A stretch of DNA of 64,000 nt from a phage. Below, piece after piece: positions 23,297-59,917 of the stretch (its first letter is position 1; each line of letters begins with the position of its first letter). The DNA is taken from assembly GCA_020619395.1 (NCBI GenBank), contig GCA_020619395.1_4860.1; one strand, written 5' to 3'. A program made the translations under genes and the position numbers. Below the pieces are notes generated by a model. That model was not told where the DNA came from. It saw nothing but the letters and a program-made list of their open reading frames with translations, and searched no databases.

Positions 23297-23299
23297 GTT

Positions 23300-24298: not shown

Positions 24299-24308
24299 CT
24301 GTTACTCC

Positions 24309-25751: not shown

Positions 25752-25762
25752 GAAGTCTCCTG

Positions 25763-26662: not shown

Positions 26663-26664
26663 GA

Positions 26665-27654: not shown

Positions 27655-27666
27655 TGTCGTTACCTC

Positions 27667-29163
27667 TTATTGGAATCCATCCAACTCACCGTTAGTATCG
27701 CCCAGAGTAATTTTTGAAGGTTGGGCGATTTGGTCAGTCGTGAGAATAATCGGTCTAATCTTAACGCTAGCCATGCCTGTTACCGCGACGGAATATGCAC
27801 GTTCATCATTGTCCGTCGTGGCAAGCAGAGGACGTGGTGAGTCTGATGACGCTTCCCGCAGCCAGGCAGGGGTGGCAGTTTCGGTGTTGTCGGTGTTGAA
27901 AACTAACGGACGTGGATTCGCTGCGGCGGAGGTTTCCGTAATAGGCACCACACGAAGCGATTCATTTTGGTCGATGTCCGTCAGAGTAACCACGGACGGT
28001 GCCCATGTTAGCTCTGCACCTTCGTCAATCAACGGCACAGGTTCATTGGCAACATCAAACATCTCCAGGATTGGCCAAAAGCCAGAAGAGGTGTAGATGT
28101 AGGTGTTTGAACGATAGCTCGCGCTGATAGACTGGTAATACGCTTGGTCGGCACCGAACTGGTGTCGTAACCACACGTAATCCAGGAAGTTAGCATCAGT
28201 CGTGCTAAGAGTTCCCCACTCCCCATATACGTTCACCGACCCCAATTTGCTGGTCAGTGACAGGATAGAGGTGATTGACGGCGGTTTACTCCAATCAGGC
28301 GCGGCGGCGTTCTCGGTGTAATACGGGATAGACATTCTGAAATAATGCGTTCCTTCATCATCCCGTTTTACCATGTATTTCAACTGTTCAACATCGACAG
28401 GTGTGTAAGTCGACTTCGGGCGAGGTCCTGCGTCTCCGGAATCAAATATTGCACCCTTGTTGTACAGGTCTGCCCAGGTAACGTTGCAAATCGCACGGGT
28501 CGGAACAAACACTACCGCCCCATTCAGAAAGAATTTGAGCCACTTGATAGCGTAGCGGTTAGGCCAGTTGGTGCCGTTATAAAGGGCATACACCATTTCA
28601 TCAGATGTGAATAACTCTTCCGCGCTTACCAGCCCAAAGAATCCGTATAACTCATTACCAGCCATTAATCCTTTTGGCCCAGGACCCGACTTCGGATACA
28701 TCGCAATCGGTTCGTAAACATAGGTCATCTTGCATGACCCGGTATAGCACAAGGAGTTAGCGTGCGCCGTCAGAGTTACAGTTTCCGGCGTAGCGTATTT
28801 CATTAATGCAACGTTTGGACTGGTGATATCACTCGCGGTTAAGTTCAACCCGTTCAATTCATTGAACGCCGGTAACGCTTCCGCATGGGTTTGTGCGCTA
28901 CGTGGAATACTCACCATATTCGGGCCAGACTTAAATAGACTGGCCAGATTCAACCGGTCGTAATATACCGTTATTTCCCCAGCAAATCCTTTACCGGGTT
29001 TTCCTACCAACGTAATCTGAGTGTTTCGTCCGTTAACGTTTTTCGCAACAGGAACACCCCTGACCCCAATGGAGTCAGGGGTGATTTTTCCTGCTAAACC
29101 GGGATTGTCACGCACAATTTGTTGGCAGAGCAGTTCCATTGAAGGTTCTGTATACAACCCCAT
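27667..29163 (-). CDS. Fibre-module paralog type C, triad 2 (498 aa)
   Basis: N-terminus about 75% identical to the triad-3 C copy; NPRPL/SPRPL repeats; C-terminal TNGELDGFQ. Confidence 0.7.
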   Translation of the reverse strand: MGLYTEPSMELLCQQIVRDNPGLAGKITPDSIGVRGVPVAKNVNGRNTQITLVGKPGKGFAGEITVYYDRLNLASLFKSGPNMVSIPRSAQTHAEALPAFNELNGLNLTASDITSPNVALMKYATPETVTLTAHANSLCYTGSCKMTYVYEPIAMYPKSGPGPKGLMAGNELYGFFGLVSAEELFTSDEMVYALYNGTNWPNRYAIKWLKFFLNGAVVFVPTRAICNVTWADLYNKGAIFDSGDAGPRPKSTYTPVDVEQLKYMVKRDDEGTHYFRMSIPYYTENAAAPDWSKPPSITSILSLTSKLGSVNVYGEWGTLSTTDANFLDYVWLRHQFGADQAYYQSISASYRSNTYIYTSSGFWPILEMFDVANEPVPLIDEGAELTWAPSVVTLTDIDQNESLRVVPITETSAAANPRPLVFNTDNTETATPAWLREASSDSPRPLLATTDNDERAYSVAVTGMASVKIRPIILTTDQIAQPSKITLGDTNGELDGFQ

Positions 29164-29176
29164 GGTATTTACTCCA

Positions 29177-30100
29177 TTACGGTAAGACTAATTCAAAAGC
29201 AAAGAATATCGTGGCCGAGTTCCCGACACCTGCGGTGTTACTAATCCCCATAGGCACGGTGCCATACGCATAAGCGAATATGTTGTTGCTCCACAAAGGA
29301 GCTAATACAGCGGCACCTGACTCATTCGGCTGCGCAGTCGCGCCTTGTCTTTCAAGTGAGTCAATCGCACCAAGACCGAGGGCTGCGTACTGTGCACCGA
29401 CAGGATACAAACGGCCCATTGTGTTTCGCCATTCACCGTTGTTGTAATCCTGTCCTGAGAGTGCCGCGTCGTACGGGACTGCGTAAGGTAATCGGATACG
29501 GTACGTACGACCATCCTTCGTGACCTTACAATCTTGTTTAGTCGCCGTGGCTCCCTGCGGAACAATACTTCCGACATCATCGGTCCCGTACATCATGCCG
29601 TACTGATACGCCATTTGTACCGAGTTGCTTTTCGAATGCATCGTCGCTGGGAAGAAGACAATTCGCCCACGGAAAATAAACTTGTGCCATTCCTGAGGGT
29701 CGTAAGTAAACATGTTTCCCTGCTGCGCGGTTAACATGAGTTTTAACTCGGCAGTATTAAAGAACTCGGTATTAGATACCGTACCGAAATAGCCTGACGC
29801 CCAATCGCCACGCAAAATAGTTTGTGGCCCCGGTCCAGTGTCCGGATAGAACCCTTGCGTAATCGGATTGCCGATAAGTCGTTCACTATCTTTCACAGCA
29901 GCTACCCAGTAACGATAAGTTGTATTCTTCGTCAGGGTATCGATATTATCTACGAACTCTACCGCGCTACCGGATAAGGTGGCGTGGGGTGTACCTGGGT
30001 TGTAAACGTCGATTGTTGCGTTCCATCCTTCCTTGCGGTAGATTTCAATCGCGGTAAGACCTTTGCTGGCTTGGGACGGCCAGCTTAACCGTATAGTCAT
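29177..30100 (-). CDS. Fibre-module paralog type A, triad 1 (307 aa)
   Basis: GPGPQTILRGDWASGYFG..EFF..HKFIFRGRIVFF central domain; AAGGGG RBS. Confidence 0.7.
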   Translation of the reverse strand: MTIRLSWPSQASKGLTAIEIYRKEGWNATIDVYNPGTPHATLSGSAVEFVDNIDTLTKNTTYRYWVAAVKDSERLIGNPITQGFYPDTGPGPQTILRGDWASGYFGTVSNTEFFNTAELKLMLTAQQGNMFTYDPQEWHKFIFRGRIVFFPATMHSKSNSVQMAYQYGMMYGTDDVGSIVPQGATATKQDCKVTKDGRTYRIRLPYAVPYDAALSGQDYNNGEWRNTMGRLYPVGAQYAALGLGAIDSLERQGATAQPNESGAAVLAPLWSNNIFAYAYGTVPMGISNTAGVGNSATIFFAFELVLP

Positions 30101-30109
30101 GACTGCCCC

Positions 30110-31108
30110 TTACTCGACCAGTTCAAAGATAGGGTAGTAGCGCCCTTTCGTGGTGGGTGATAAATAGTTTATACGCTGAATCGTGGATACGGGTGTTCCA
30201 CCGGCATTGTTAAAAATACCACGATGGAGCACACGGTCTTCCGCGGTATCGTGTTCCATACAGAGAACACCACCGCCGAAATACTGTGCCAAGGTTCCCA
30301 AAGTACCTTGCCCCAGATAAGTATAACCGATTGTTGCCCAGTTAGCCCAACGCTGTTTCTTCGGCACCTCGTTAACCATCGTGTAAAGTAAATCGTTATA
30401 CTCACACGGGTTGGTTAGAGAAGCGATTTCATCATGGGTTTTCCCATTATAGTCAGCTACGAAAGGATACGCAGGAGGCTCGCTAGACATCGTCAGGCCG
30501 CGAGGAAGACGCATGATGTACGTATCCCCTTTGTGGACTATCTTAGCGTCTTGTGGAGTGGCCGGTAGCGTTCCATGGCCGTTCTCTGGACCAGCATCGC
30601 CCGTACCATAGACTAAACCAGCTTGATAGAGGGAAGCCCAGTCCACAGGCGTATTCGGGAACTGCGACGTGCTAGATAGCATGTAATAGATCTTCCCGTT
30701 TCGGGTAAATTTATACAACGCCACACGATCGGTTAGTAGGTTAGGGAACATCGCCAAAAATGCAGGTGGCATTTGCGACGGAAGCCACTGTTCGTCGTAA
30801 GGAACCGCACCCATAAACCCTAAACGGTCGTCACCGTTTAGAATAGTCATTGGACCGATCCCACGCTTTATCTCAATGGTGTATTTCTGGCTAGACGATG
30901 CCACTGTTTTACCGTTGGCGGTTACCGTCAGAAGGTAATAATAGGTTGCGCCTGGTGTGGCGGTGGTATCACGCCATTCTGTCTCGCCATTTGAGAGCGT
31001 TGCAATCGGTTCAGGCAAAGCGCTTGGTGTGATATCTTTAACATCACGGTAGATTTTTACTACCGTAGGGATTACGTTTGGATTTTTCCAACGCAAAGTA
31101 AAAGACAT
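30110..31108 (-). CDS. Fibre-module paralog type B, triad 1 (332 aa)
   Basis: MSFTLRWKNPNVIPTVVKIYRD.. homologous to the other B copies. Confidence 0.7.
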   Translation of the reverse strand: MSFTLRWKNPNVIPTVVKIYRDVKDITPSALPEPIATLSNGETEWRDTTATPGATYYYLLTVTANGKTVASSSQKYTIEIKRGIGPMTILNGDDRLGFMGAVPYDEQWLPSQMPPAFLAMFPNLLTDRVALYKFTRNGKIYYMLSSTSQFPNTPVDWASLYQAGLVYGTGDAGPENGHGTLPATPQDAKIVHKGDTYIMRLPRGLTMSSEPPAYPFVADYNGKTHDEIASLTNPCEYNDLLYTMVNEVPKKQRWANWATIGYTYLGQGTLGTLAQYFGGGVLCMEHDTAEDRVLHRGIFNNAGGTPVSTIQRINYLSPTTKGRYYPIFELVE

Positions 31109-31119
31109 AGATGATACCT

Positions 31120-32532
31120 CTACTTAAAGCCGTCCAGTTCACCGTTAAGAGACGTTAACGTTGTCTTGTCAGGGGGCGTATACATTTCAGCGGTAGCCGC
31201 AATAGGTTGGAAGTCGACTGTCTTCGGCAGCATTAAAGCAGGCGGATGCAGTGCGAAACTGTTTTCTGAAGTAACAACTACCGGTTCGAAATCGGTAGTA
31301 TCCGGATTACCGAGCACTAACGGCTTGAGACTAAATGTGTTTTCTGCGGACACGCTGCACGGTTGGAGACTGTAATCTGCCGTACCGTGGATATCTTCTA
31401 AACCCAAGGTAACTGTGGACTTATCCACCAACTCCAGCACCGGGAACCAGTAGTAGTTGCCCGCACTCGATGATTTTTCTAAGTTTGTCCAACTTGCTCC
31501 AGACAACGTCGCCATGCGATGATTGGCGACGTTGGTCTTCAGTGTATCTTTCAATAAACAGAACAGCGTCCAGTAACTGTTAATCGGTTTGTCCCACGTT
31601 CCATTATACAGAAAGTTGAACATCTCAAACTCACTACCTGCTAACTCAGCGGCAGTTGGGGTGCCGCTGACGTATGGGTCTTTCCCGGCACTAGGTAGAC
31701 GAACGCGGAAGTAAAACCTTTTGTTGTCTGCGCCTGTAAAGCTAATGATGCGTCCCTGGTTAACGGGCGTCGCCGCAGGGTATTTACCATTATCGTCTGT
31801 TCCGTAAACGAGTCCGTTTGTATATAACGTATTCCAGGAGATGGAGCTAGCGACAGGACTGATCGGAAGGTAAATAACCCTACCCTGGTAAAAGAACTTG
31901 TACCAACCTTCGGCACCAGAATGTACCGGTGGTAACGCACCGGCCGATATAGTGGCATTAAGAAGTTGAGAGTGTGTAAACAACTCTGCAGTTCTGGTTG
32001 TTCCGAAATAACCCGCGATAGTGTTACCTTGCAGCAACGTTTTAGGGCCAGGTCCAGAATCGGGGTAAATTGCACCACTCGGGACGGTATAACGTATCGT
32101 TAAGCTGCCTGTAAACGCAGGGCAATTGCCTGAGATATTTAATTTCAACGTCTGCGGCGAAACGCTCGGTTTAGGTAAACTTGCGTCAGGTGACTGCAAA
32201 TCAGAAGCAACTAATGTAAGCCCCAATGCGTCGTTTATTGCAGGTAGCGCGTCTCGTACCGTTAAGACTGTATCTTTGATAGCCACAGTCGGCACAAAAT
32301 TAAATAAAGTGGCCAGGTTAATCCGGTCGTAGTACACGGTAACATTACCTTGTACACCTGTCCCTGGATACCCGGTGAAAACAGCTTTGGTGTTACGTTG
32401 GTTTAACGTAACTGAAGTTGGGCCACTGGTTAAAGCAGCGATAGCCGGCGTCAGCTTAACAACTAAATCAGGGTTATCCCGATTGACTTGGTCGTATACA
32501 AGCAGTGCCGACTCCTTCGAGTAAAATAGCAT
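31120..32532 (-). CDS. Fibre-module paralog type C, triad 1 (470 aa)
   Basis: VNRDNPDL..RNTKAVFTGYPGTG..VYYDRINLATLF N-terminal module; C-terminal LNGELDGFK. Confidence 0.7.
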   Translation of the reverse strand: MLFYSKESALLVYDQVNRDNPDLVVKLTPAIAALTSGPTSVTLNQRNTKAVFTGYPGTGVQGNVTVYYDRINLATLFNFVPTVAIKDTVLTVRDALPAINDALGLTLVASDLQSPDASLPKPSVSPQTLKLNISGNCPAFTGSLTIRYTVPSGAIYPDSGPGPKTLLQGNTIAGYFGTTRTAELFTHSQLLNATISAGALPPVHSGAEGWYKFFYQGRVIYLPISPVASSISWNTLYTNGLVYGTDDNGKYPAATPVNQGRIISFTGADNKRFYFRVRLPSAGKDPYVSGTPTAAELAGSEFEMFNFLYNGTWDKPINSYWTLFCLLKDTLKTNVANHRMATLSGASWTNLEKSSSAGNYYWFPVLELVDKSTVTLGLEDIHGTADYSLQPCSVSAENTFSLKPLVLGNPDTTDFEPVVVTSENSFALHPPALMLPKTVDFQPIAATAEMYTPPDKTTLTSLNGELDGFK

Positions 32533-32545
32533 AGGGACTCCGCAT

Positions 32546-32576
32546 CGCCAAAAGAGGGGGGCTCCGAAGAGCCCCT
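32546..32576 (-). terminator. Hairpin terminator between short-paralog genes and triad 1
   Basis: Minus-strand GGGGCTC-TTCG-GAGCCCC followed by CCTCTTTTGG. Confidence 0.45.
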
Positions 32577-32580
32577 ACAC

Positions 32581-33408
32581 TTAGCTGTTATAGTGGTAGT
32601 ACGCCACGCCTTTCACGCCTTCCTCATCGATACCCGTTTGGATAACCACGCGGTCGTACGATTTGTTAGCGAACTGAGCGGTGGATGTCGGCACATCCTG
32701 AACGGTGTTACTGTTCAGTGGCCCCGCGTAGTTCGGAATACCCAGGTCATCCAACACCTTACGCAAACCAGCCCACTGCGGTAGGCCAGAAGCATCTACT
32801 GTCAGTAGGTTTTTATACGCGGTAAAGTCAATACCGTACGTCAACAAATCAATACACTTCTTACCGAGAGACGGTGAAATAGGCTCTTGAATCGCATTCA
32901 AGACATCTGATTTCACCGAAGTGTCTAGTACCGGTAAACCACGGTTATAACGCAACGTCGCAGAACCGATATAAGCCGGAGATGTCGATAGCGCTGCAAT
33001 GGTCTGTGTATTGGTGTAATTTGGGGTATTGGCACCAAACAGTGAGTAGTTTTGGATATCGATTGCGGAGAAGTTTACTCCGTAAGTATCCAAGAGCACC
33101 GAAAAGGCTGAGTGGAGGTTGGGCGCGTCAAACGTGACGAACTGCGCCTGGACAGAAGGACCCCACGGCAATAACCGCGCTAAGTTCACACGGTCGTAGT
33201 AAACGGTGATTGCGTCTCGAAATCCGGAACCCTGAATACCGCGCAAGCGTGCCGACGTATTGCGGTTGTTGGAAGCTGCATTAACGGGAACCTGCGTCAC
33301 TTTCTCCACGTAGCAGTTTGCCGGCGACGCTTTAATAGGTAGGTTTGGGTTATCCCGGTTAATGAGGTCAAAGACCAACTCGTTTGACGGCTTAGCATAG
33401 TTGATCAT
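32581..33408 (-). CDS. Fibre-module family short paralog (275 aa)
   Basis: ATG 33408 (tracked TTG 33411). N-terminal module INRDNPNL..RNTSARLRGIQGSGF..VYYDRVNLARLL; C-terminal YYHYNS. Confidence 0.65.
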   Translation of the reverse strand: MINYAKPSNELVFDLINRDNPNLPIKASPANCYVEKVTQVPVNAASNNRNTSARLRGIQGSGFRDAITVYYDRVNLARLLPWGPSVQAQFVTFDAPNLHSAFSVLLDTYGVNFSAIDIQNYSLFGANTPNYTNTQTIAALSTSPAYIGSATLRYNRGLPVLDTSVKSDVLNAIQEPISPSLGKKCIDLLTYGIDFTAYKNLLTVDASGLPQWAGLRKVLDDLGIPNYAGPLNSNTVQDVPTSTAQFANKSYDRVVIQTGIDEEGVKGVAYYHYNS

Positions 33409-33411
33409 CAA

Positions 33412-34299
33412 TTATACCTCGCTTGGATCGTCCAGATCGTTGAACTGGAGATACAACGTTCCGACGATGGTGGTACAGGTAACAGGCAGTTTCAACACCA
33501 GCGCATACTTGTACTTCGCGTTTGTCGGCATTGCAACAGGGTCATTCAGACCAACGCTGATAACCTCCGCGCCCGCCAAACCGTAGGAAGCGGAGGTGGT
33601 CGCTACCCATGCAGTACCCGTGATATCTTTCAGCAGGTTAACCATATCCGTTAACGGCTGTCCGGACAGAATACCCGGCACGTATGCCAGCAACTCATCA
33701 CGGTATTTGGTGAAGTTGTACGGGTAGGAATAAACCTCTGCAATGACCGCAGTAACGGTTTCGGAACCCATCTGACCGTTCGGGTATTTCAGACCGGTCA
33801 GGACGTTAGTGGTGACCGCAGAGACTAACGACTCATCGCCTTTCACGACTTTAAATGTCGCCTGTCCAACCCAACCGATAGACTCAGGATGTGCAACAAC
33901 ACGCACAGTTCCTTCGGTCTTATCACCGTTCCATTCGATATCTGCGTCCTGCAGGTCAGCTTCTTCCAGAACAAAACCGTAACGTTGGTTCAGTCCAGGA
34001 ATGGCCGCATACAAGGTTTCGTTGGATGGGCCGATCGCCAACGTGTCACCAATCAGCACTAACAAGTCTTCGATTTTCATGCGGTTGTAGAAGACATTTT
34101 TCTTACCCGACCAGGTAGAGCCCGTTACCCCATCTGCCGTAATTTTAATTTGCGTGTTACGGTTAGTCAGCGTTTCCTTCTCCGTACCACGGATGTCCTT
34201 TGGCGAGGACCAGATGATGTCAGTCATCTTAACAGCAAGCGAGTTCTGTGCGTTCACTGCTGCCAACAGGACGTCTTTAGAAGGTTGATAAATAGCCAT
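33412..34299 (-). CDS. Fibre-module family short paralog (295 aa)
   Basis: N-terminal module (NRNTQIKITADGVTG..FYNRMKIEDLL); C-terminus LYLQFNDLDDPSEV. Confidence 0.65.
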   Translation of the reverse strand: MAIYQPSKDVLLAAVNAQNSLAVKMTDIIWSSPKDIRGTEKETLTNRNTQIKITADGVTGSTWSGKKNVFYNRMKIEDLLVLIGDTLAIGPSNETLYAAIPGLNQRYGFVLEEADLQDADIEWNGDKTEGTVRVVAHPESIGWVGQATFKVVKGDESLVSAVTTNVLTGLKYPNGQMGSETVTAVIAEVYSYPYNFTKYRDELLAYVPGILSGQPLTDMVNLLKDITGTAWVATTSASYGLAGAEVISVGLNDPVAMPTNAKYKYALVLKLPVTCTTIVGTLYLQFNDLDDPSEV

Positions 34300-34309
34300 T
34301 CGCTAATTC

Positions 34310-35149
34310 CTAGTTGTTGTAGTGCAACATACACTCGCCGATTACTTTCGGGTCGTTCTGAATGCCGGTAATCAGCAATACGTTATCGTACGCTTTATTG
34401 GCGGTCGCCAACTCACTCGTTTTGTAGCGGGTAATTGTGCAGTTCGTCGGATCAAACGACGGTACCCCACGTGCGACCAATGTGGCCATCAGATTGGACG
34501 TGTAACCCAAATCAAAGTTACTTCCTACGTCCATTCGCCCGTTCTTAAACGAGGCCATAACCTGCACTTCATCAGTAAAGTCTTCCCCGTACGTCAAGAA
34601 GCCCATGTATTTCTTACCAGTGCTTGCTGCTGCAGGGTGGTTCAAAGCCGACAAGATGTCGTTTACCACGAGGTCTTCGAGACTATTCTTACCCCGGATA
34701 GACATAAAGGTGATGCTGCCAGTGTATTGGATACAGCTAGCGTTAATGCGCATCGTGTTGTTTACGTTCAGATAAACGTATTGTTCTGGGATATCGTCTG
34801 CAACCAGGTTTAATCCATAACGACCGTTCAGGTTCTGCGCAAACGCAGTACGTTTCGACTCCACGTTCAACCAACCGTAGGCATTCGGTGCAGTTACCTG
34901 AGGTGTCATGTTCTTAAATAAGTCGTTCAGCGACAAGCGCTTATAACGGAACGTCTGAGGACCGATATAGCCACGACCTTGACGACCACGAATGATAATC
35001 TCAGTATTGGCACCGCTTGCTGTCGGTGTGATTGCTTTCGGCGTACCGATGATAGCATTGTCTAAACCCATCGGTAGAACAGCATCCGGGTTTTCGGCAT
35101 TAATCGCATCGTACAGATATTGTCGCTGAGACAGACTATATAAAGCCAT
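34310..35149 (-). CDS. Fibre-module family short paralog (279 aa)
   Basis: ATG 35149 (MALYSLSQ..) with GAGGAGG 5 nt upstream; tracked 35167 start would translate the RBS. C-terminal MLHYNN. Confidence 0.65.
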   Translation of the reverse strand: MALYSLSQRQYLYDAINAENPDAVLPMGLDNAIIGTPKAITPTASGANTEIIIRGRQGRGYIGPQTFRYKRLSLNDLFKNMTPQVTAPNAYGWLNVESKRTAFAQNLNGRYGLNLVADDIPEQYVYLNVNNTMRINASCIQYTGSITFMSIRGKNSLEDLVVNDILSALNHPAAASTGKKYMGFLTYGEDFTDEVQVMASFKNGRMDVGSNFDLGYTSNLMATLVARGVPSFDPTNCTITRYKTSELATANKAYDNVLLITGIQNDPKVIGECMLHYNN

Positions 35150-35167
35150 AATAGCCTCCTCGGCCAA

Positions 35168-35206
35168 AAAAGAAAGGAGTAGCCAGGAGGAGGATTTCCT
35201 CCTCCC
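35168..35206 (-). terminator. Hairpin terminator-like element
   Basis: GGAGGAGG-ATTT-CCTCCTCC stem-loop; U-run begins 9 nt downstream on minus strand. Confidence 0.35.
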
Positions 35207-35218
35207 AGCGAGGCCTAA

Positions 35219-36130
35219 TTAGGCATTAAAGTGCAGGTACATGACGCCCTGGAAGTTGGTGCACAGAGTGTCATCCAGCTGCAGCAGCAGAACCTGGTTG
35301 TAAGCAGTGTTTGCACCTTCAACCGGTTTCTTAGGATCGTCGCCTGAAGCAGTGCCATCGTCAGTAGTAGAACCAACGTACAACACGTTAGCACCTTTCA
35401 GGTTATAATCCGCAGGCTCATCAGATGCAACCCACAGTTCCGGCACAACTTTATTCAGCTCAACCGGGAATGCAGAGTCGCCAGCGATAACACCTTTCGC
35501 CTGTACTTTCAGGAATGCTGCGATTGCTGTGCAGTCTACACCGTAAGAGTAGATGTAGCCCTGACCCTTCGCTTCGCTTGGACCATCTGGGTAAACCAGG
35601 CCGTCGAGCTTGGTTTGTGTTACCACCAGACTCAGACGTTCACCAACCTGAGGCTTAGCACCGATTTTAACCGGGATGCTGCCCAGATATGCGTAGCAGT
35701 CTTCTTTGAAGGTAATGACATGGTCAACCGGTGCTGGGTCCGGATCGTTCGGGTTAGTCAGCGGCGGGTTGGTATTTTCCGGAATAGCCGCCGGAACGAT
35801 ATCGTCTTCGGTCAGCTTCAATCCATATTGGTTGTTCAGGGTCGTCAGCAGGTCTGTGGTGGTTTTCGGCAGTTTAACGTCGAGGTATGCTGTTACGTTA
35901 CGGAACAGCGCACCGCCTTCCAGGCGATTATAAGTCACGTCCTGAGTACCGATGTACCCGGAGTTCTTTTTCGCAGTCAGGGTCATGCTGGTATTGCGAT
36001 CGGCACCTCCATCGATAATAGGGGTCGGTGTGCCGAGCGTTATTTTAGAAAGTTCCAGTTCTGCGTCTGGGTTTTTCTCATTAATAAAATCCAGAACCAG
36101 CTGATCGGACGTTTTGTTTAAAGGTTTCAT
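35219..36130 (-). CDS. Fibre-module family short paralog (303 aa)
   Basis: N-terminal module (INEKNPDAEL..DRNTSMTLTAKKNSGYIG..TYNRLEGGALF); C-terminal MYLHFNA. Confidence 0.65.
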   Translation of the reverse strand: MKPLNKTSDQLVLDFINEKNPDAELELSKITLGTPTPIIDGGADRNTSMTLTAKKNSGYIGTQDVTYNRLEGGALFRNVTAYLDVKLPKTTTDLLTTLNNQYGLKLTEDDIVPAAIPENTNPPLTNPNDPDPAPVDHVITFKEDCYAYLGSIPVKIGAKPQVGERLSLVVTQTKLDGLVYPDGPSEAKGQGYIYSYGVDCTAIAAFLKVQAKGVIAGDSAFPVELNKVVPELWVASDEPADYNLKGANVLYVGSTTDDGTASGDDPKKPVEGANTAYNQVLLLQLDDTLCTNFQGVMYLHFNA

Positions 36131-36151
36131 TCTTACTTCCTTTACTCAGGA

Positions 36152-36997
36152 TTAATCAGGGTCGTTGTAGTGCAAATACAAACGCCCGCCAAAATTCAGA
36201 CAGTACAACGACAGCTCCACAATCAGCACGTTGTCGACTGCTGGGTTGGTTGGTAATTCCGCTTTGTTACGCCCGTTATAGACGACGACGGCTTCACGAA
36301 GGTTAAAGTCGATTGGGTTACGGTACGTTGTCCAGTTATCACCGGTGACCGTTTTGAGAATCTGTGCCAGACGTTCTGCGGTTATCGCAGCACCTAGTCG
36401 TTGAAATTCCTCCGCGAAATTATCAAAGCGCCAGGGATACGAATAAACTGCACCTTGACCGACCTTGATGTTAAAATACGGATACTCGTAAGGTGTTACT
36501 GTTAAGGGTTCGAAGTTTGCAGGAAGCAACGCATCGCCTGGTAACAGCTGTACCTGTTGTTGCCCTATCCAACCTAAAGAAGTGGGCGTGGCAATCAGAT
36601 CCACACGCCATGTCTTCCTGTCGATTTCGGTATTCACCACATCTGCAGGTTTAAGGCTGAGACCGTAATACTGGTTAATTAACCCGACCACGTCATGCAT
36701 CTGGTAAACGGCATCGAGACGTGCAGGAACACGTAGAGGTTGAATCCCGTCTGGGTCGGTAAACATGTCTGCGAAGTCAACACGATCGTAATACACGGTA
36801 GTGGCACCGATAGCATTAGCGGTGGCCAATGCCTGAATGCGCACCATCGCGTTATGACCATTGGCTTTTGCCAGGTCTTCGTCAGACGTCGGAATCGCAG
36901 GGACACCGAAAACCACATCTTCGACTTTTAAATCGAGATTGTTTTCGACGTTAACCTCCGCGATAATAATCTTTTCAGCAGTGGCTAAAAGTGGCAT
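36152..36997 (-). CDS. Fibre-module family short paralog (281 aa)
   Basis: Divergent N-terminal module ..TTVYYDRVDFADMF; C-terminal LYLHYNDPD. Confidence 0.6.
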   Translation of the reverse strand: MPLLATAEKIIIAEVNVENNLDLKVEDVVFGVPAIPTSDEDLAKANGHNAMVRIQALATANAIGATTVYYDRVDFADMFTDPDGIQPLRVPARLDAVYQMHDVVGLINQYYGLSLKPADVVNTEIDRKTWRVDLIATPTSLGWIGQQQVQLLPGDALLPANFEPLTVTPYEYPYFNIKVGQGAVYSYPWRFDNFAEEFQRLGAAITAERLAQILKTVTGDNWTTYRNPIDFNLREAVVVYNGRNKAELPTNPAVDNVLIVELSLYCLNFGGRLYLHYNDPD

Positions 36998-37007
36998 GTC
37001 AAAATCC

Positions 37008-37850
37008 TTATATCGGGAGATAGTGAAGGATGAGATTACCGGCGTAGTTGCTGTCCGCAGCTAGCTTGATAATCGCCACACGCTGATAATCGGGGTTGTA
37101 ACTATCGTTCGGTGTGACTGAAGTTATCCCCATAAATCGCGCACCTTGGAGTGCAATTTGTTCAGGTTGCGCAGTCGCCCCCGTCACATATGCAAACTTT
37201 AATGGCACCACTTCGTTCAGCAATTCAACATCCGCCGCGGTGATTGCGCGGTTGTAAGCCCAATCGGTAGTGAACTGTTTTTGCAGTTCAGTCCAATCGT
37301 AACCATACGCCACATACTCAGCCTGTGGTTTACTAGCAACCACGAACGGCGCGATAATTGCGCTGAGGTCAACATCCGTCACCACATCCGCCAAGTTCGG
37401 GAAGAACTTCGCAAAGCGTAAACGGAAACCACCTTGCCAGGCCAAGCAACCAGGCTTAATAGTCACATCGATTAACCAGCTTTCTCCCAAATCTTTTACT
37501 GACTGGTCAACGATATCGTCGGCAACTAAAGACAAGCCGTATTTCGCATTCAGAAACGGCAACAACTCAGAGAGTTTATTTACCGGGTCGGCAACGACTA
37601 CCGGTATTACGTTCCTGAACAGAATTTCCATTTCGATACGGTCGTATTCGAGCGTAACGTTGCCTTTGTAGCCCTTGCCGTTCAACCCGTATAAGAGCAC
37701 ACGCGTATTCCGGTCAGCGCCAGGCGTTTGGACAGACTCAGGGAAGCCAGTTGCAACCTGCTCCCATGTGAGTGGATTGGCCGTTAATCCGTTCTGTCGG
37801 TTAATAGCATCTAACAACATCTCTTTCGAGGGCTTATCGTAAATAGACAC
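37008..37850 (-). CDS. Fibre-module family short paralog (280 aa)
   Basis: GTG start with AGGAGG 8 nt upstream. INRQNGL..DRNTRVLLYGLNGKGYKG..EYDRIEMEILF; C-terminal LILHYLPI. Confidence 0.65.
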   Translation of the reverse strand: MSIYDKPSKEMLLDAINRQNGLTANPLTWEQVATGFPESVQTPGADRNTRVLLYGLNGKGYKGNVTLEYDRIEMEILFRNVIPVVVADPVNKLSELLPFLNAKYGLSLVADDIVDQSVKDLGESWLIDVTIKPGCLAWQGGFRLRFAKFFPNLADVVTDVDLSAIIAPFVVASKPQAEYVAYGYDWTELQKQFTTDWAYNRAITAADVELLNEVVPLKFAYVTGATAQPEQIALQGARFMGITSVTPNDSYNPDYQRVAIIKLAADSNYAGNLILHYLPI

Positions 37851-37860
37851 CTATACCCTC

Positions 37861-38658
37861 CTAGTTGTTAAAGTGTAGGTTGAGGCTGCCCTGGAAGTTC
37901 GTACATTTATCGGTCAGTTGCACTGACACGACTTTCGCGAACGCCGTATTTGCTCCCGGCAAGTCTGCAGGTACGCCGTCGAATACGACAGTGGCACCAC
38001 GCAGGTTATACGGGGATGGGGTATCTTCAGCTACCCAAATCTCAGGAACACATTTGTTGAGTTCGATTGCCAACGCCGTGTCATCTACCTCGATACCGAC
38101 CGCTAAGAGGCTCAGGAAACGAGAGATGTGGCTACAATCGATGTCACGCGAATAGATATACGCCTGACCCAACTGGATGTCCTGGTGATCCGGGTACAGA
38201 AGACCGCTCAACTCTGTATTGGTTACTACTTCTGCCAGAGGTGTAGCAGGTTTCAGCTCGATGACCGCTTGACTTCGCCACTCGTGGGAAGTTTCAACAG
38301 CAACGACTGTGTGCGTCTGTCCATCAATGGGGTTATCTTCGATATCCTCAGGTAAGATAGACAGATTAAAACGCTCGTTAATCGCCGCGAGTAAGTCGTG
38401 CGTGGTTTGCACGTCCTCGTCTCCAAAGGCAACATCGCCTTTAAGGTAGTCCTCTAATGGACGACGATGGTAGTCCACAATCACTTGCGTACCTTCATCA
38501 CCGCGCATCTTCGAGGTAAGGACTACCTCCGAATCACGACCGTCTACTGACACAACCTCCGGCAGTCCGATATCAACATCGTCAAAGGTAAGCGGTGGGC
38601 TTATCTTATTCTCTTCGTTGATGAGTTTTAGCAGATTCTGTTTTGAAGTAAAAGACAT
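37861..38658 (-). CDS. Fibre-module family short paralog, first gene of array (265 aa)
   Basis: ATG 38658 preceded by palindrome TTAACTCGAGTTAA and no clear SD; C-terminal LNLHFNN. Confidence 0.6.
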   Translation of the reverse strand: MSFTSKQNLLKLINEENKISPPLTFDDVDIGLPEVVSVDGRDSEVVLTSKMRGDEGTQVIVDYHRRPLEDYLKGDVAFGDEDVQTTHDLLAAINERFNLSILPEDIEDNPIDGQTHTVVAVETSHEWRSQAVIELKPATPLAEVVTNTELSGLLYPDHQDIQLGQAYIYSRDIDCSHISRFLSLLAVGIEVDDTALAIELNKCVPEIWVAEDTPSPYNLRGATVVFDGVPADLPGANTAFAKVVSVQLTDKCTNFQGSLNLHFNN

Positions 38659-38760
38659 CGCGTTAACTCGAGTTAAGGGATTATTGAGGTCGTAAGATTT
38701 TTAGACCCCCTGCCAGCATATTAAAAGCGTAGTGCGTACCAGAATCTGAACAAGAGCAAA

Positions 38761-38810
38761 CAAAAAAAAAGAAAAGGAAACAAAAAAAGAAGGGGAGCCG
38801 AAGCTCCCTT
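38761..38810 (-). terminator. Strong rho-independent terminator upstream of the paralog array
   Basis: Minus-strand GGGAGC-TTCG-GCTCCC hairpin followed by a long T-rich run (CTTCTTTTTTTGTTTCCTTTTCTTTTTTTTT). Confidence 0.7.
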
Positions 38811-38814
38811 TTCT

Positions 38815-39246
38815 TCACGACTTCGACTGCTCCCATTCAGGATAGACGAAGTTTCCATTGTGTTCTTTGTAGTGTTTGTAGAGTTCCTGGACAAGATCAG
38901 AAATCTTATCCCCGCAATCATGAAACCAACTATCCCAGCAAAAGTGCGGGAAGTCGTTCCACGAATAAGATACCTTGTCATTGAAAGCTTCCCAACTGAC
39001 ATACCACCAATAGCCCTTCTGCAGTTCATAGGCATCCCAGAACTTATACCCACTAGACGTTTCGTATACCACGATAATCCATTTGACATCGTTCGTCCCT
39101 TCGTCGCAGATACCGAATGCGTGGTCGGTGGTGTCGAACGTGTAGTCCGTCTTATAGGGTTTGTTTTTGTTGTTTATCCGAATACGTGCACCCTTCGGCA
39201 TCAGAGCATGGAAAGTATCGCCGTTCAGCTTTTTGATTACGTTCAC
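38815..39246 (-). CDS. Hypothetical protein (143 aa), Trp/Tyr-rich
   Basis: GTG start with GAGGA 9 nt upstream; no recognisable domain. Confidence 0.5.
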   Translation of the reverse strand: MNVIKKLNGDTFHALMPKGARIRINNKNKPYKTDYTFDTTDHAFGICDEGTNDVKWIIVVYETSSGYKFWDAYELQKGYWWYVSWEAFNDKVSYSWNDFPHFCWDSWFHDCGDKISDLVQELYKHYKEHNGNFVYPEWEQSKS

Positions 39247-39547: not shown

Positions 39548-39994
39548 TTAGTGTACTTCTTTTTCTAAACGCAGGCGATGTGTTGCTAAGGCAACCGCGC
39601 GGTTTTCGAATTCAAGACTGAATGGGCTGATTTGTGCCATGTATTTCTTTACGATGTCGTCAGAGACAACTTGACGACGATAATCACGAATCATTTCAGC
39701 AAAGCTGCTAGTAGGAAGTTCATCGTATTCGATTTCCATACCACGTCTATTGATGTAGTACGAAGCAACCATGTCGTTAAACATTACATCGCCGGCTTCA
39801 CCTAGGGGGAACTCGTCGCGGGTAGGTTCTGTGGTCTGGAACGTGGCTTCTTTGGCGTTAGCGATAATCTCTTCGAAGACCTCAGTAGTGAATTCGCTAG
39901 GGTCTTGTTTGTTGGCCGCCATCACGATTAGGAAAGAAATCATAATCGGGTTTTTGCTAGCGTACTTAGTAAGTTCGTTATTCAGAATGTACAT
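39548..39994 (-). CDS. Hypothetical protein (148 aa)
   Basis: AAGGAG 8 nt before ATG; preceded by the conserved leader cassette. Confidence 0.6.
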   Translation of the reverse strand: MYILNNELTKYASKNPIMISFLIVMAANKQDPSEFTTEVFEEIIANAKEATFQTTEPTRDEFPLGEAGDVMFNDMVASYYINRRGMEIEYDELPTSSFAEMIRDYRRQVVSDDIVKKYMAQISPFSLEFENRAVALATHRLRLEKEVH

Positions 39995-40025
39995 GTTAAA
40001 ACTCCTTAAGATAATGGTCGAGTAA

Positions 40026-40072
40026 GAGAGTTAATGGTTAACTCTCACCTAAGTAATATATATCTGAAAATT
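40026..40072 (-). promoter_or_regulatory. Conserved upstream motif plus leader hairpin (copy 1 of duplicated leader cassette)
   Basis: Plus-strand AACTCTCACCTAAGTAATATATATCTGAAAA and hairpin GAGAGTTAA-TGG-TTAACTCTC; about 75 nt near-identical to 58103-58180. Confidence 0.45.
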
Positions 40073-40087
40073 ATTGTAATCGGACTA

Positions 40088-40127
40088 GACAAAAAAAGAA
40101 GAAACCCTACTCCCGAAGGAGTAGGGT
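40088..40127 (-). terminator. Rho-independent terminator
   Basis: Minus-strand CCCTACTCC-TTCG-GGAGTAGGG followed by TTTCTTCTTTTTTTG. Confidence 0.7.
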
Positions 40128-40167
40128 GCTGCTTTATTGACCGCTTTTGGGATAAGTGCCTCTCAAG

Positions 40168-40608
40168 TCAATCGGCCACGTAATCACGTAAGAGTTTCCG
40201 GGCTGCTACTGTAGCAGAAACTTGCTCTTTATTAGCGTTAATGCCGATACCATTAAAACGTTTTAGTTTGTCTAAGAAAACGCTAATGTTTTCTTTCGGC
40301 ATAGGGCGTGGGAACTTACGCAGAAAATAAAGTTGTTCGCGGCCAGGCACCCAACTGAGTACCCAGCACGCTTTCAGTGTACGGAAGATATCACGGTAGG
40401 GTTTCTTCTCTTGAAAGAAGTCCCCTTTTAACTGACAACGGTCTTCAACCATTGCCTGGAGTTGAGTGGCTACGTTGGCCATTGCCGGCCAGGTGATAAG
40501 ACGACTACGGTGTTTACCCACGTAGAGACGTCCACCTGTAATACGACGAGACTGTGGATGTACTATTTTGACAAACTGTAATCTTTTCTGTTTGCGTGGC
40601 TTTAACAT
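40168..40608 (-). CDS. Hypothetical basic protein (146 aa)
   Basis: AAGGAG 8 nt before ATG; Lys/Arg-rich; no confident domain. Confidence 0.55.
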   Translation of the reverse strand: MLKPRKQKRLQFVKIVHPQSRRITGGRLYVGKHRSRLITWPAMANVATQLQAMVEDRCQLKGDFFQEKKPYRDIFRTLKACWVLSWVPGREQLYFLRKFPRPMPKENISVFLDKLKRFNGIGINANKEQVSATVAARKLLRDYVAD

Positions 40609-40635
40609 TTAAATACTCCTTAAGGGGCTATGACA

Positions 40636-40968
40636 CTACGGCCGTACAGTTAACATTTCTCTCAGATCGGTCACATCGAGCTTAGCAATCATGGGTGACG
40701 TCGTGATGTGTGCGCAACGAGGCTGTACTCGGTACGCCTCAAGTGGAAAAGGTTTGTTAAATGCTTTTATCTGGTCGCGGCGGAGCTTCTCCATCGCACG
40801 TTTGGCTAATGTCCTTTTTAAAGGTGACCACTTCGCTGCTAAACCGAGAATGATAACATCGACGATTAGCTGGTTCTCTTGATACTCGAATGTACCAATG
40901 AGTTTCTTACCTTTATAGAGTCGCGCACGTCCCTGCTGGAACACGACTGACGTTCGTTTCGTTTTCAT
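40636..40968 (-). CDS. Hypothetical protein (110 aa)
   Basis: ORF in operon orientation; weak RBS. Confidence 0.45.
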   Translation of the reverse strand: MKTKRTSVVFQQGRARLYKGKKLIGTFEYQENQLIVDVIILGLAAKWSPLKRTLAKRAMEKLRRDQIKAFNKPFPLEAYRVQPRCAHITTSPMIAKLDVTDLREMLTVRP

Positions 40969-41011
40969 TGCTTGTGGTTTCCATGGTTAAAGGGAAAACA
41001 AACTGTTATTT

Positions 41012-43747: not shown

Positions 43748-44080
43748 CTACTCATTGACCACCCCCAAACCACTTACAGTGGATGCTGCGGGGACATCCA
43801 GGTTATTCATCCATAGCGACAGCTTGTTCATCTTCGCTGCGGTCTCTGGGCTAGGGTTATTGCGCAATTCACTTAAAGCCATCGCATACTGGGTTGCCAG
43901 TATTTGACTGCCGTAGAAAGCACCACGGCTTACAGGCAGCGCTTCGAAGCGTGCATCGAAATTGTTTGCTTGGTTAAGTTCTTTAACAGTGCTCAGAATG
44001 GCTTCTTGCATTCGAAGTTCACCGTCGCCTTCAAGGTCAGTTGCCTGACGCAATACCGCAATGTGATAGACTTTAGACAT
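43748..44080 (-). CDS. Hypothetical protein (110 aa)
   Basis: AAGGAG RBS; preceded by conserved upstream motif and terminator. Confidence 0.6.
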   Translation of the reverse strand: MSKVYHIAVLRQATDLEGDGELRMQEAILSTVKELNQANNFDARFEALPVSRGAFYGSQILATQYAMALSELRNNPSPETAAKMNKLSLWMNNLDVPAASTVSGLGVVNE

Positions 44081-44140
44081 TTTAATTGCTCCTTAATACA
44101 TGACATAAGTTCTGATTGAAACGTAAATTTCAGAGGTTCA

Positions 44141-44162
44141 CTGAGATAACATCTATCTGAAA
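44141..44162 (-). promoter_or_regulatory. Conserved upstream motif (GAGATAACATCTATCTGAAA class)
   Basis: Plus-strand CTGAGATAACATCTATCTGAAA 60-80 nt upstream of the ATG at 44080; same core at 51581, 59856, 40040, 58148. Confidence 0.4.
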
Positions 44163-44202
44163 TAAAATAAAGCGTACCAGCCACCCCGAAGGATAGCTGG
44201 TA
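44163..44202 (-). terminator. Rho-independent terminator
   Basis: Minus-strand CCAGCTATCC-TTCG-GGGTGGCTGG (two G-U pairs) followed by TACGCTTTATTTTATTT. Confidence 0.6.
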
Positions 44203-51242: not shown

Positions 51243-51548
51243 TTAAGCGACAGCGCGTTTGCGTTTATCGACGACTTTCTTGGTTGCTTTCGCTGCCTTC
51301 TTACTGGCAGGGATAGTATCAACCGGGGTGTCGGCTACCAAGGCACGCTCTACACCGTCTGCACGTACGACGCGCAGATTCTTCGCCTGTGGTAAGCCTT
51401 TGAAAGTGATGGTCAAACCCGCGCGGAGACCTTGATACAGAAACCCTTGCAGGTTCAGTTTCTTGGCGGTTGCAGTGTTCTCACAACCTTTCTCCACGTA
51501 CAGCAGAGTCGTACCTGCGCGTTTAACAATTGTGTATTGTTTAGCCAT
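51243..51548 (-). CDS. Small basic protein (101 aa), possible nucleic-acid-binding
   Basis: Lys-rich C-terminus KKAAKATKKVVDKRKRAVA; preceded by conserved upstream motif. Confidence 0.55.
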   Translation of the reverse strand: MAKQYTIVKRAGTTLLYVEKGCENTATAKKLNLQGFLYQGLRAGLTITFKGLPQAKNLRVVRADGVERALVADTPVDTIPASKKAAKATKKVVDKRKRAVA

Positions 51549-51580
51549 CTACTTTTTCCTTTCTTTACAGTTAGGTTCAG

Positions 51581-51602
51581 TAAAATAACATCTATCTGAA
51601 AA
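51581..51602 (-). promoter_or_regulatory. Conserved upstream motif
   Basis: Plus-strand TAAAATAACATCTATCTGAAAA about 35-55 nt upstream of the ATG at 51548. Confidence 0.4.
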
Positions 51603-57736: not shown

Positions 57737-58102
57737 CTACATCACTGCAGAAGGTTTACGTGCCATGACTTTAAGTCCTGTTTCTCGTACCCGGATAGGA
57801 CAGTTATTCATGTAGTCGATGCAGGATTCAATTTTGAAGCTATGGCGGCATTTGCCGTTGATGGAACGGTAAACGATTTCGTAATTCAGGCGCAGTGTAT
57901 CGGCAACACGCATCAGAGTTTCGATAGTCACGGCTTTCTCGCGTTCATTTTTAATCGCAGAGATTTGTGACGGTGAGCAGCCTACCAACAATGCAATGTC
58001 TTTCTGCGTAACATCCTTCGCAGTGACACGAGTAATAATGTAAGAGAGACGAACCAGAAATGCTTTCTTTGCCAACACAACAGTTTGATGTTTAAAACGC
58101 AT
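57737..58102 (-). CDS. HTH (XRE-like) transcriptional regulator
   Basis: KDIALLVGCSPSQISAIKNEREKAVTIETLMRVADTL fits helix-turn-helix_3 pattern; AAGGAG RBS; first gene after the conserved leader cassette. Confidence 0.65.
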   Translation of the reverse strand: MRFKHQTVVLAKKAFLVRLSYIITRVTAKDVTQKDIALLVGCSPSQISAIKNEREKAVTIETLMRVADTLRLNYEIVYRSINGKCRHSFKIESCIDYMNNCPIRVRETGLKVMARKPSAVM

Positions 58103-58133
58103 TAGAATACTCCTTTAGATTAATAGTCGATTA

Positions 58134-58177
58134 GAGAGTTTAACGACAACTCTCACTAAGGTAATATATATCTGAAA
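58134..58177 (-). promoter_or_regulatory. Conserved upstream motif plus leader hairpin (copy 2 of duplicated leader cassette)
   Basis: Hairpin GAGAGTT-TAACGAC-AACTCTC and AACTCTCACTAAGGTAATATATATCTGAAA; 58103-58180 near-identical to 39995-40072. Confidence 0.45.
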
Positions 58178-58217: not shown

Positions 58218-58259
58218 CTGTAAAAAAGACAATGCCCTCTTACCCGAAGGTAAGAGGGG
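58218..58259 (-). terminator. Rho-independent terminator
   Basis: Minus-strand CCCTCTTACC-TTCG-GGTAAGAGGG followed by CATTGTCTTTTTTACAG. Confidence 0.7.
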
Positions 58260-58888: not shown

Positions 58889-58948
58889 TTTATTCTTCCC
58901 CAAAAGTTTAATTAATTGTAGTGGTGTCACAATATAGCGAGCATACGT

Positions 58949-59756: not shown

Positions 59757-59855
59757 TTTGTTTACTCGCTTTTAAGTTTAAGTTGGTGAGTTTTAACCGA
59801 CTCACAACGGCTTCTAGCATATGCTAAGGATGAAACGTAATTTTTGCACGTCTCC

Positions 59856-59879
59856 CTAAGATAACATCTATCCAAAAAA
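59856..59879 (-). promoter_or_regulatory. Conserved upstream motif
   Basis: Plus-strand CTAAGATAACATCTATCCAAAAAA, with TGAAACGTAATTT shared with the 44101-44140 copy. Confidence 0.35.
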
Positions 59880-59880
59880 G

Positions 59881-59913
59881 AATAGAGTCGACCCACTCCC
59901 GAAGGAGTGGGTA
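59881..59913 (-). terminator. Rho-independent terminator
   Basis: Minus-strand ACCCACTCC-TTCG-GGAGTGGGT followed by CGACTCTATTCTTTTTTGG. Confidence 0.6.
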
Positions 59914-59917
59914 TAAC

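Follow-up and report, generated by a model that had tools for sequence, protein, structure and literature searches.

What is a stretch of noncoding DNA doing when it recurs, altered but recognizable, in front of two unrelated genes? The question is raised by the window analyzed here, a 64,000-nucleotide (nt) stretch of phage DNA (GenBank assembly GCA_020619395.1, contig GCA_020619395.1_4860.1) in which two promoter-leader cassettes, copy A at 40072-39995(-) and copy B at 58180-58103(-), precede a gene of unknown function and a gene for a helix-turn-helix (HTH) regulator, each cassette being read on the minus strand together with its gene. The answer we favor, and consider probable, is that both are composite early expression cassettes, uniting a promoter for the virion RNA polymerase, a 5'-terminal stem-loop that protects or boosts the transcript, and a translation-start module.

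At 97% identity, the closest match of the window is to Salmonella phage SPN3US and relatives, which places it in an SPN3US-like jumbo phage, phiKZ-related and nucleus-forming. Phages of the SPN3US type bring along a virion RNA polymerase (vRNAP), which serves early genes, and encode a nonvirion enzyme (nvRNAP) for later ones (PMC7598289; PMC13282480). The minus strand of the window corresponds to the plus strand of SPN3US, where copy A sits 5' of RefSeq gp131 and copy B 5' of gp165, annotated as 'HTH DNA binding protein'. In a gapped global alignment, A and B are identical in 63 of 80 columns (79%) with four gaps, for a score of 42 against -12.9 ± 5.0 for random window segments, and a repeat search independently recovered the pair as family D9 (52 nt, 81%). 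The original prediction had described near-identical 75-nt stretches; both are present where it placed them, but at 79% identity their likeness was somewhat overstated. The mismatches are concentrated in the hairpin, in its inner stem and its loop. The parts it had listed, namely a motif, the inverted repeat GAGAGTT..AACTCTC and a ribosome-binding site on the side of ACTCCTT, were all found. Plus-strand TAATATATATCTGAAA is minus-strand TTTCAGATATATATTA in the cassette and plus-strand CTCCTT is the Shine-Dalgarno (SD) sequence AAGGAG, such that both copies run, 5' to 3', from an intrinsic terminator through the motif TTTCAGATATATATTAC(Y)TTAGGTGA, an inverted repeat and a box to AAGGAG and ATG. 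The downstream genes are likewise as unrelated as had been supposed: open reading frame (ORF) 39548-39994(-) behind A encodes 148 amino acids (aa), belongs to phrog_8484 (function unknown) and has no Pfam match, ORF 57737-58102(-) behind B encodes a 121-aa HTH_3 protein (E=2e-7), and a comparison of the two proteins returned no similarity.

What A and B have in common reaches far beyond these two genes. A 25-nt position weight matrix (PWM) of the motif, applied to the window, the SPN3US genome and shuffled genomes, detects 24-26 sites in SPN3US versus 0-1 in shuffled genomes, and nearly all of the SPN3US sites are intergenic and co-directional with the next gene. Five sites fall in the window, all on the gene strand and each 5' of an ORF; the 17-mer of A and B has two further relatives there. 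A duplication before two genes, as first proposed, is thus real as far as the two copies go but understates a family that is genome-wide and clade-wide, with five sites in the window and ~24 in SPN3US. Its members take two forms. Class I, to which A and B belong, reads ...ATATATATTAC-N4-GTGA, with the core TATATTAC-N4-GTGA, and class II reads ...GATAGAT(A/G)TTAT-N4-GTGA. Searched for exact matches to the class I core pattern, IMG/VR yielded 39 loci, and these hold 40 distinct cassettes in ~12 jumbo-phage genomes, drawn from SPN3US, several Erwinia phages and uncultured contigs, a minimum for the family. The 96-nt cassette, used as a BLAST query, matches ~6 places in each SPN3US-type genome and 3-6 in each genome of an Erwinia phage. 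As a separate observation, the class II core, AGATA-N5-TATCT, forms a 5+5 dyad, and two places in SPN3US score on both strands (15610/15636 and 191598/191624); the latter lies between divergently transcribed genes, which suggests a bidirectional promoter or a dimeric binding site.

The company that the motif keeps speaks to the polymerase that reads it. Each of the three nvRNAP clusters of SPN3US (original gp22-23, gp34-35 and gp76-78, the original number being 266 minus the RefSeq number; subunit assignments from PMC5105663) is directly preceded by motif sites, and the vRNAP genes have no motif site directly upstream. The nvRNAP genes are early (PMC13282480), and since clusters behind these sites must be transcribed by the injected enzyme, the motif would be an early promoter of the vRNAP type. 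The phiKZ genome points the same way: it contains TATATTAC 33 times on the plus strand and nine times on the minus strand, and ~25 intergenic sites of the form TTTAAACAG/TTAAGATC-TATATTAC-N4-(G/A)TG(A/T) share core and spacing with the window. We equated these sites with the published early promoters by description, as an AT-rich extended -10 element, rather than by coordinates. Early promoters of phiKZ consist of an AT-rich element centered near -10 (PMC7598289; PMC8244752); early starts have been mapped by 5' rapid amplification of cDNA ends (5'-RACE), differential RNA sequencing (dRNA-seq) and ONT-cappable-seq, and the early 5' untranslated regions (UTRs) are mostly 31-40 nt long (PMC8244752). 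The distance from motif to ATG at the phiKZ sites is 23-54 nt. A scan of the gene strand at A and B for sigma-70-like promoters came back empty, which speaks against a host sigma-70 promoter at either copy. That the motif is an early promoter for a phage polymerase is, in our view, very likely. By analogy with phiKZ, transcription would begin in or adjacent to GTGA, as judged by the position of the -10 element, by the phiKZ 5'UTR lengths and by the members of the SPN3US family that have no hairpin, in which the SD follows GTGA by 12-18 nt.

Directly behind this predicted start comes the inverted repeat. In 29 of 36 non-redundant cassettes, from ~12 phages, the anchored search places the first base of a 6-11 bp stem 0-4 nt beyond the G of GTGA, close to the predicted +1. 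The mean stem score of the cassettes is 15.1 versus 7.9 ± 0.6 for shuffled sequences, and their mean minimum free energy (MFE) -7.3 versus -3.2 kcal/mol. Six positions at the start of the 5' arm hardly vary (GTGAGA), presumably since they also serve as initially transcribed sequence; at positions 6-10 there is variation, which the 3' arm tracks, and loop length ranges from 3 to 8 nt across copies. Covariation was assessed by an anchored stem search and by realignment to a covariance model built from seven in-register copies, which took in 48 matches, 43 of them distinct; a MAFFT alignment was ungapped and left the 3' arms out of register. Among the 43 distinct copies, 91.1% of cells are paired (75.9 ± 1.5% when shuffled), 42 cells show compensatory double changes (16.1 ± 2.6 when shuffled), and the covariation score of 0.310 stands against 0.123 for shuffled and 0.012-0.063 for slid registers, with compensatory changes at five of eight pairs. 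The model matches hairpin A at 40019-40065 (53.7 bits) and hairpin B at 58127-58173 (35.6 bits); the rest of either leader, SD included, is unstructured.

The structure also has a preferred strand. When both strands are folded as RNA, the sense strand is the more stable in 27 of 34 copies (p=8e-6), which indicates selection on the gene-sense strand, most simply in the transcript, although a hairpin in the non-template DNA strand would produce the same bias. Anchored stems contain 31 G-U and two A-C pairs, a count that is biased, as the stem finder accepts G-U and penalizes A-C. Fixed position, compensatory changes and the sense bias together bear out the earlier suggestion of a shared RNA structure beyond the promoter, if not its alternative of an operator, and we regard it as likely that an RNA structure under selection lies at or near the 5' end. 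The hairpin is also unevenly distributed: in SPN3US it accompanies 6/6 class I sites and 5/18 class II sites (p=0.003), and the 25 early leaders of phiKZ show no enrichment at all (stem score 7.5 versus 7.6 shuffled, three good stems). The phiKZ result serves as a negative control for the method and renders the leader module specific to the enterobacterial clade of SPN3US and the Erwinia phages; a hairpin universal to chimalliviruses is ruled out by it. Nor is this a known RNA family: Rfam 15 covariance models gave no match at the gathering threshold in the whole window and none with E<=1 in 39900-40200. Tested as intrinsic terminators or attenuators, hairpins A and B were not called by the terminator scan, their stems being AU-rich and followed by no U-run. 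Two SPN3US cassettes deserve mention in their own right. At 165683-165780 and 167502-167600, promoter and 5' hairpin are followed directly by a strong intrinsic terminator and then by box, SD and gene, an arrangement reminiscent of the 5'UTR-derived short RNAs and terminators reported in phiKZ and 201phi2-1. They are candidates for attenuators in the leader or for short RNAs made early.

The orthologous HTH locus, followed through divergence, provides a view of the same selection at work. Five Seoulvirus genomes (the window, SaP7, SPN3US, SEGD1 and Lh1B) keep GAGAGTT...AACTCTC before the HTH gene, while the loop, 58141-58147(-) in the window, reads GTCGTTA, ACTACTA or GCTCGTA among these 95-99% identical phages. 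Between the window and SPN3US, 5/7 loop positions are substituted as against 5/121 in the flanks (p=2e-5), a divergence far above neutral for which template switching, conversion and diversifying selection are candidates. Erwinia phages Asesino and phiEaH2 retain the stem with further loop variants, and in Erwinia phage pEa29 GAGAGTT...AACTCT is exchanged for GAGCATT...AATGCT, a double compensatory replacement. Compensatory substitutions and the difference in rate between stem and loop imply selection on pairing itself. Salmonella phage SPAsTU takes the locus apart. There, an inserted 150-aa gene separates the thymidylate kinase gene from the HTH gene (positions 201-750 of the compared locus), bringing promoter, hairpin (GAGCGTT...AACGC) and box, and the HTH gene, now an internal cistron, retains only box and SD. 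This arrangement assigns promoter and hairpin to the 5' end of the transcript, and the box to the translation start of each cistron.

The box itself, AAYCGACYAT, occurs 12 times on the plus strand of SPN3US and never on the minus strand, as against ~0.9 occurrences expected. Eleven of these sites are positioned immediately 5' of an SD, two of them between cistrons and with no promoter motif. In other phages CGACTAT, with at most one mismatch, is present in 15 of 34 cassettes versus 1.5 in shuffled leaders, always 19-30 nt before the ATG; the median distance from GTGA to ATG in the cassettes is 53 nt. Two partners for the box were considered and discarded. An antisense phage partner is excluded by the zero minus-strand matches in SPN3US, which mean that no reverse complement exists on the gene-sense strand. 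Pairing of box and loop, which copy B suggests by eye, fails because only the loop of the window offers a 4-nt match (GUCG:CGAC), and those of SPN3US and Lh1B offer none.

Upstream, the cassettes are often preceded by a terminator, present within 60 nt in 13/34 cassettes of other phages by a strict test. The CCTACTCCTTCGGGAGTAGGG stem of the copy A terminator often recurs before unrelated genes in different phages, from which it follows that the composite of terminator and promoter is itself a repeated unit. The terminators before motif sites, among them those at ~44175-44200 and ~59895-59915(-), all have C(UUCG)G tetraloops. Compared with phages EC001 and JN03, the window has a hotspot of gene gain and loss, with indels at 38823-39241, 40139-40167 and 40623-41010. 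At the second of these, the DNA separating ORF 40168-40608 from the cassette A terminator is 0.8-1.4 kb longer in EC001 and JN03, and homology breaks at the 5' edge of that terminator. Cassettes thus stand at indel boundaries both here and at the SPAsTU insertion at copy B, although only these loci were compared and intergenic breakpoints are to be expected in any case. The same two relatives also lack ~420 bp comprising ORFs 38721-39089 and 38815-39246, as well as ORF 40636-40968, and in EC001 the homologue of ORF 40168-40608 is annotated within a longer, 267-aa ORF.

How might these parts work together? In the model we favor, the intrinsic terminator, where present, would insulate the unit from upstream transcription, and the injected virion RNA polymerase would read the promoter TATATTAC-N4-GTGA. 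A start in or next to GTGA would bring the stem-loop to the extreme 5' end of the mRNA. There, with selection apparently acting on pairing alone, it would most likely shield the 5' end from decay (RppH, RNase E) or otherwise boost the expression of the strongest early transcripts. The box AAYCGACYAT, directly 5' of a strong AAGGAG SD, would form part of the translation start of each cistron. Copies A and B would then resemble each other as paralogous members of a family with at least 6-7 hairpin-bearing copies per genome, held alike by a common function and probably by recombination, and no gene-specific regulator need be shared between them. A generic structural role fits best with a position fixed relative to the start, a loop free in sequence and length, and an SD that is not occluded. 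That this role is specifically stabilization we hold to be a little short of an even bet.

Several considerations weigh against the model. The searchable literature contains no transcript map of an SPN3US-type phage, so start, timing and polymerase are deduced from homology and anatomy. Folded singly, the hairpins are not significant (z -1.2 for A, -0.8 for B) and the case is carried by comparison; the covariance model aligns the copies so as to fit its structure, hence the importance of the slid and shuffled controls, and many copies are related by descent, such that the counts are not independent events. Because phiKZ does without the hairpin, it is not needed for virion-polymerase transcription as such. 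Stabilization is one of several sequence-independent roles open to a 5' stem, and a simple stabilizer would not predict the extreme variability of the loop. The box, for its part, is complementary to 16S rRNA only at chance level, with a longest run of 7-8 nt that is no better than for shuffled boxes, and pairing with 16S rRNA was discarded as an explanation.

Foremost among the rival explanations, though unlikely, is that the 5' hairpin, alone or together with the box, serves as a signal by which a specific phage or host factor picks out early virion-polymerase transcripts for export from the early-infection vesicle, ribosome loading or translational control, in place of passive stabilization. 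Early transcription is compartmentalized and RNA-binding export factors have been proposed (PMC13282480), the module is clade-specific, the leader architecture is tight (median GTGA-ATG distance 53 nt), and the box is conserved in sequence, strand-specific and tied to translation starts. Set against this are a loop variable in sequence and length and an inner stem that is not conserved, which argue against a sequence-specific reading of the hairpin, a good box in 15/34 cassettes only, and many early-type promoters in the same genome that have neither hairpin nor box. A fuller version, in which hairpin and AAUCGACUAU box make up a dedicated, factor-read leader of enterobacterial nucleus-forming jumbo phages that routes early transcripts from the vesicle or to ribosomes, and in which the hypervariable loop records an arms race, for example escape from RNA-targeting host defense, strikes us as improbable. 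Somewhat further down the scale comes a role during transcription, whereby the hairpin would act as a pause site or attenuator, or would aid promoter escape or RNA exit of the virion polymerase. Many copies do have CUUUUA after the stem, the SPN3US cassettes at 165683 and 167502 place a true terminator right after the hairpin, and 5'UTR terminators from which short RNAs result are known in phiKZ and 201phi2-1. However, the stems of A and B are followed by CUCUUACUCG and CUCUAAUCG and not by a U-tract, stems are short and AU-rich (~-7 to -10 kcal/mol) with a negative terminator scan, and homologous phiKZ promoters work without any such hairpin.

The original prediction had raised an operator, with autoregulation by the HTH_3 protein (57737-58102) as a point to check. 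In such a model the protein would bind either the inverted repeat or the promoter core, for autoregulation or to shut off early genes. We rate this as slightly less probable again. Its appeal lies in an HTH_3 gene directly behind cassette B, a linkage kept into the Erwinia phages, and in the class II dyad AGATA-N5-TATCT, two sites of which score on both strands, between divergent genes. But A and B have a class I core, which forms no dyad; the stems differ between copies, the loops are hypervariable, and an arm spacing of 3-8 nt leaves half-sites at no fixed distance. G-U pairs and the stability bias toward the sense strand point to single-stranded sense RNA and not to duplex DNA. Control specific to the HTH gene fares no better, as the cassette also precedes at least seven unrelated genes per genome and the HTH gene of SPAsTU, separated from promoter and hairpin, has lost both. 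Two further possibilities are very unlikely, and equally so. One is a promoter hairpin at the DNA level, extruded in one strand as in phage N4: the polymerase is delivered by the virion, the repeat stands at a fixed distance from the core, and the sense bias would fit the non-template strand, yet the repeat is downstream of the predicted start, free in sequence unlike that of N4, and absent at 13/18 class II sites of SPN3US and 22/25 sites of phiKZ, hence not required for promoter function. The other is that the similarity reflects nothing but a mobile or recombinogenic cassette, akin to the promoter-early stem-loop (PeSL) type, or a host sigma-70 promoter, with a functionless leader. The indel breakpoints between close relatives do coincide with the terminator-promoter unit of copy A, the SPAsTU gene was inserted together with its own cassette, and the same terminator sequence precedes various unrelated genes; compensatory substitutions and the difference in rate between stem and loop nonetheless show selection on pairing, and the copies have no sigma-70 consensus. 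In any event, a part in recombination and a function for the leader are compatible and not mutually exclusive.

Table 1. Positions of the cassette elements, further motif sites and upstream terminators within the window
Feature	Position	Strand	Remarks
Cassette A promoter motif TTTCAGATATATATTACTTAGGTGA, class I	40045..40069	-	PWM score 36.8; core TATATTAC at 40060-40053; GTGA 40048-40045, predicted start region
Cassette A leader hairpin GAGAGTTAA-CCA-TTAACTCTC	40026..40046	-	9-bp stem, 3-nt loop; starts 2 nt beyond the G of GTGA
Cassette A pre-SD box ACTCGACCAT, variant of AAYCGACYAT	40014..40023	-	
Cassette A SD AAGGAG (40007-40002) and ATG (39994-39992) of ORF 39548-39994	39992..40007	-	
Cassette B promoter motif TTTCAGATATATATTACCTTAGTGA, class I	58153..58177	-	PWM score 36.7; TATATTAC at 58168-58161; GTGA 58156-58153
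Cassette B leader hairpin GAGAGTT-GTCGTTA-AACTCTC	58134..58154	-	7-bp stem, 7-nt loop
Cassette B pre-SD box AATCGACTAT	58123..58132	-	
Cassette B SD AAGGAG (58115-58110) and ATG (58102-58100) of HTH_3 ORF 57737-58102	58100..58115	-	
Class II site TTTCAGATAGATGTTATCTCAGTGA	44138..44162	-	Behind a terminator, 5' of ORF 43748-44080; no good anchored hairpin
Class II site	51577..51601	-	Short unstructured leader, 5' of ORF 51243-51548
Class II site	59853..59877	-	Behind a terminator; hairpin at the same anchored position, long structured leader, ORF 58992-59756
Intrinsic terminator 5' of cassette A	40104..40127	-	10-bp stem, cUUCGg loop, T-run to ~40091; ends the unit of ORF 40168-40608
Intrinsic terminator 5' of cassette B	58235..58258	-	10-bp stem, cUUCGg loop; lies behind the gene for thymidylate kinase (58265-58930)

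The features of both copies, and of their relatives in the window, are collected in Table 1. The leader behind the last class II site, at 59770-59877(-), measures ~95 nt and folds into three hairpins 5' of ORF 58992-59756 (MFE -20.3, z -2.57), and is possibly either a structured leader or a short RNA. Elsewhere in the window, paralogous genes of ~265-500 aa form an extended array at 22394-38658(-), in which repeat families D1, D2, D4, D5, D7, D11 and D12 are found; it corresponds to the cluster of 'virion structural protein' paralogues of SPN3US (RefSeq gp113-gp128).

Genetic work on enterobacterial nucleus-forming jumbo phages takes SPN3US as its model, and no transcription map of it was found in the searchable literature; text searches of the literature with the motif strings and for an SPN3US transcriptome likewise gave no relevant match. 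The present analysis provides a testable set of early promoters with predicted starts, tied by sequence to the core of the phiKZ early promoters. While the promoter class is already known in kind, its members of strongest consensus bear an additional, evolutionarily maintained module at the predicted mRNA 5' end that phiKZ lacks. The searchable literature, which leaves figure logos and paywalled papers out of reach, yielded no mention of the pre-SD box, of a covarying 5' hairpin linked to the TATATTAC class or of the clade specificity. Should the hairpin indeed stabilize or boost, a phage that brings its own polymerase would also equip its first transcripts against host RNases, and the unit of terminator, promoter, hairpin, box and SD would be a compact, portable expression part for phage engineering. 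Moreover, the cassette may mark the module boundaries of accessory gene gain and loss, which would extend the PeSL idea beyond T4-type phages. In essence, it is a well-founded and testable regulatory element of a model jumbo phage and not a categorically new mechanism.

Four known systems invite comparison. The promoter hairpins of the N4 virion polymerase, a single-subunit enzyme, precede the start and have features conserved in both stem and loop. They share with the present cassettes a virion-delivered polymerase and early promoters associated with a short inverted repeat. In N4, however, the hairpin is the promoter itself and lies upstream of +1, whereas the repeat here is downstream of the predicted +1, free in sequence and absent from most sites of the motif family.

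A closer kinship is with phiKZ. Early promoters of this type, used by the virion multisubunit RNA polymerase, were reportedly described by Ceyssens in 2014. Both sets have the core TATATTAC followed after 4 nt by (G/A)TG(A/T), are AT-rich, intergenic and co-directional, and stand, at ~25-30 sites per genome, upstream of small early-type genes and of the genes for the nonvirion polymerase. They differ in the upstream half, TTTCAGATA here versus TTTAAACAG or TTAAGATC in phiKZ, in the second, dyad-like class GATAGATATTATC that is common in SPN3US, and in the phiKZ leaders, which have no enriched 5' hairpin. Early promoters of the phiKZ type are treated in Wicke 2020 (PMC8244752) and in a review according to which early-promoter motifs have been predicted bioinformatically for every RNAP-encoding jumbo phage (PMC7598289).

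In architecture, the cassettes recall the PeSL cassettes of T4-type phages (PMC2839356, PMC4122927). Each is a small intergenic unit of terminator stem-loop, early promoter, SD and start codon that is repeated before unrelated small genes. PeSL cassettes are found where close relatives differ by insertion, deletion or gene swap, as the present ones may be, to judge by copy A and by the SPAsTU insertion at copy B. The PeSL promoter, in contrast, is of the host sigma-70 kind, whereas the promoter here is of a phage-polymerase type that has no sigma-70 match, and the PeSL stem-loop is an upstream terminator only, whereas here a covarying stem-loop within the transcript and a pre-SD box are added.

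For that added stem-loop the nearest parallel is bacterial. Stabilizing stem-loops at the 5' terminus, of the type found in the ompA 5'UTR, are said to have been described by Emory, Bouvet and Belasco in 1992, and such enterobacterial stem-loops shield the mRNA 5' end from decay that depends on RppH and RNase E. The phage element differs in being a repeated, promoter-linked viral module whose 5' end is predicted. Yet the resemblance would extend to a short hairpin at or within a few nt of the 5' end, in which pairing matters while sequence and loop are free, and to enterobacterial hosts that possess both RNase E and RppH.

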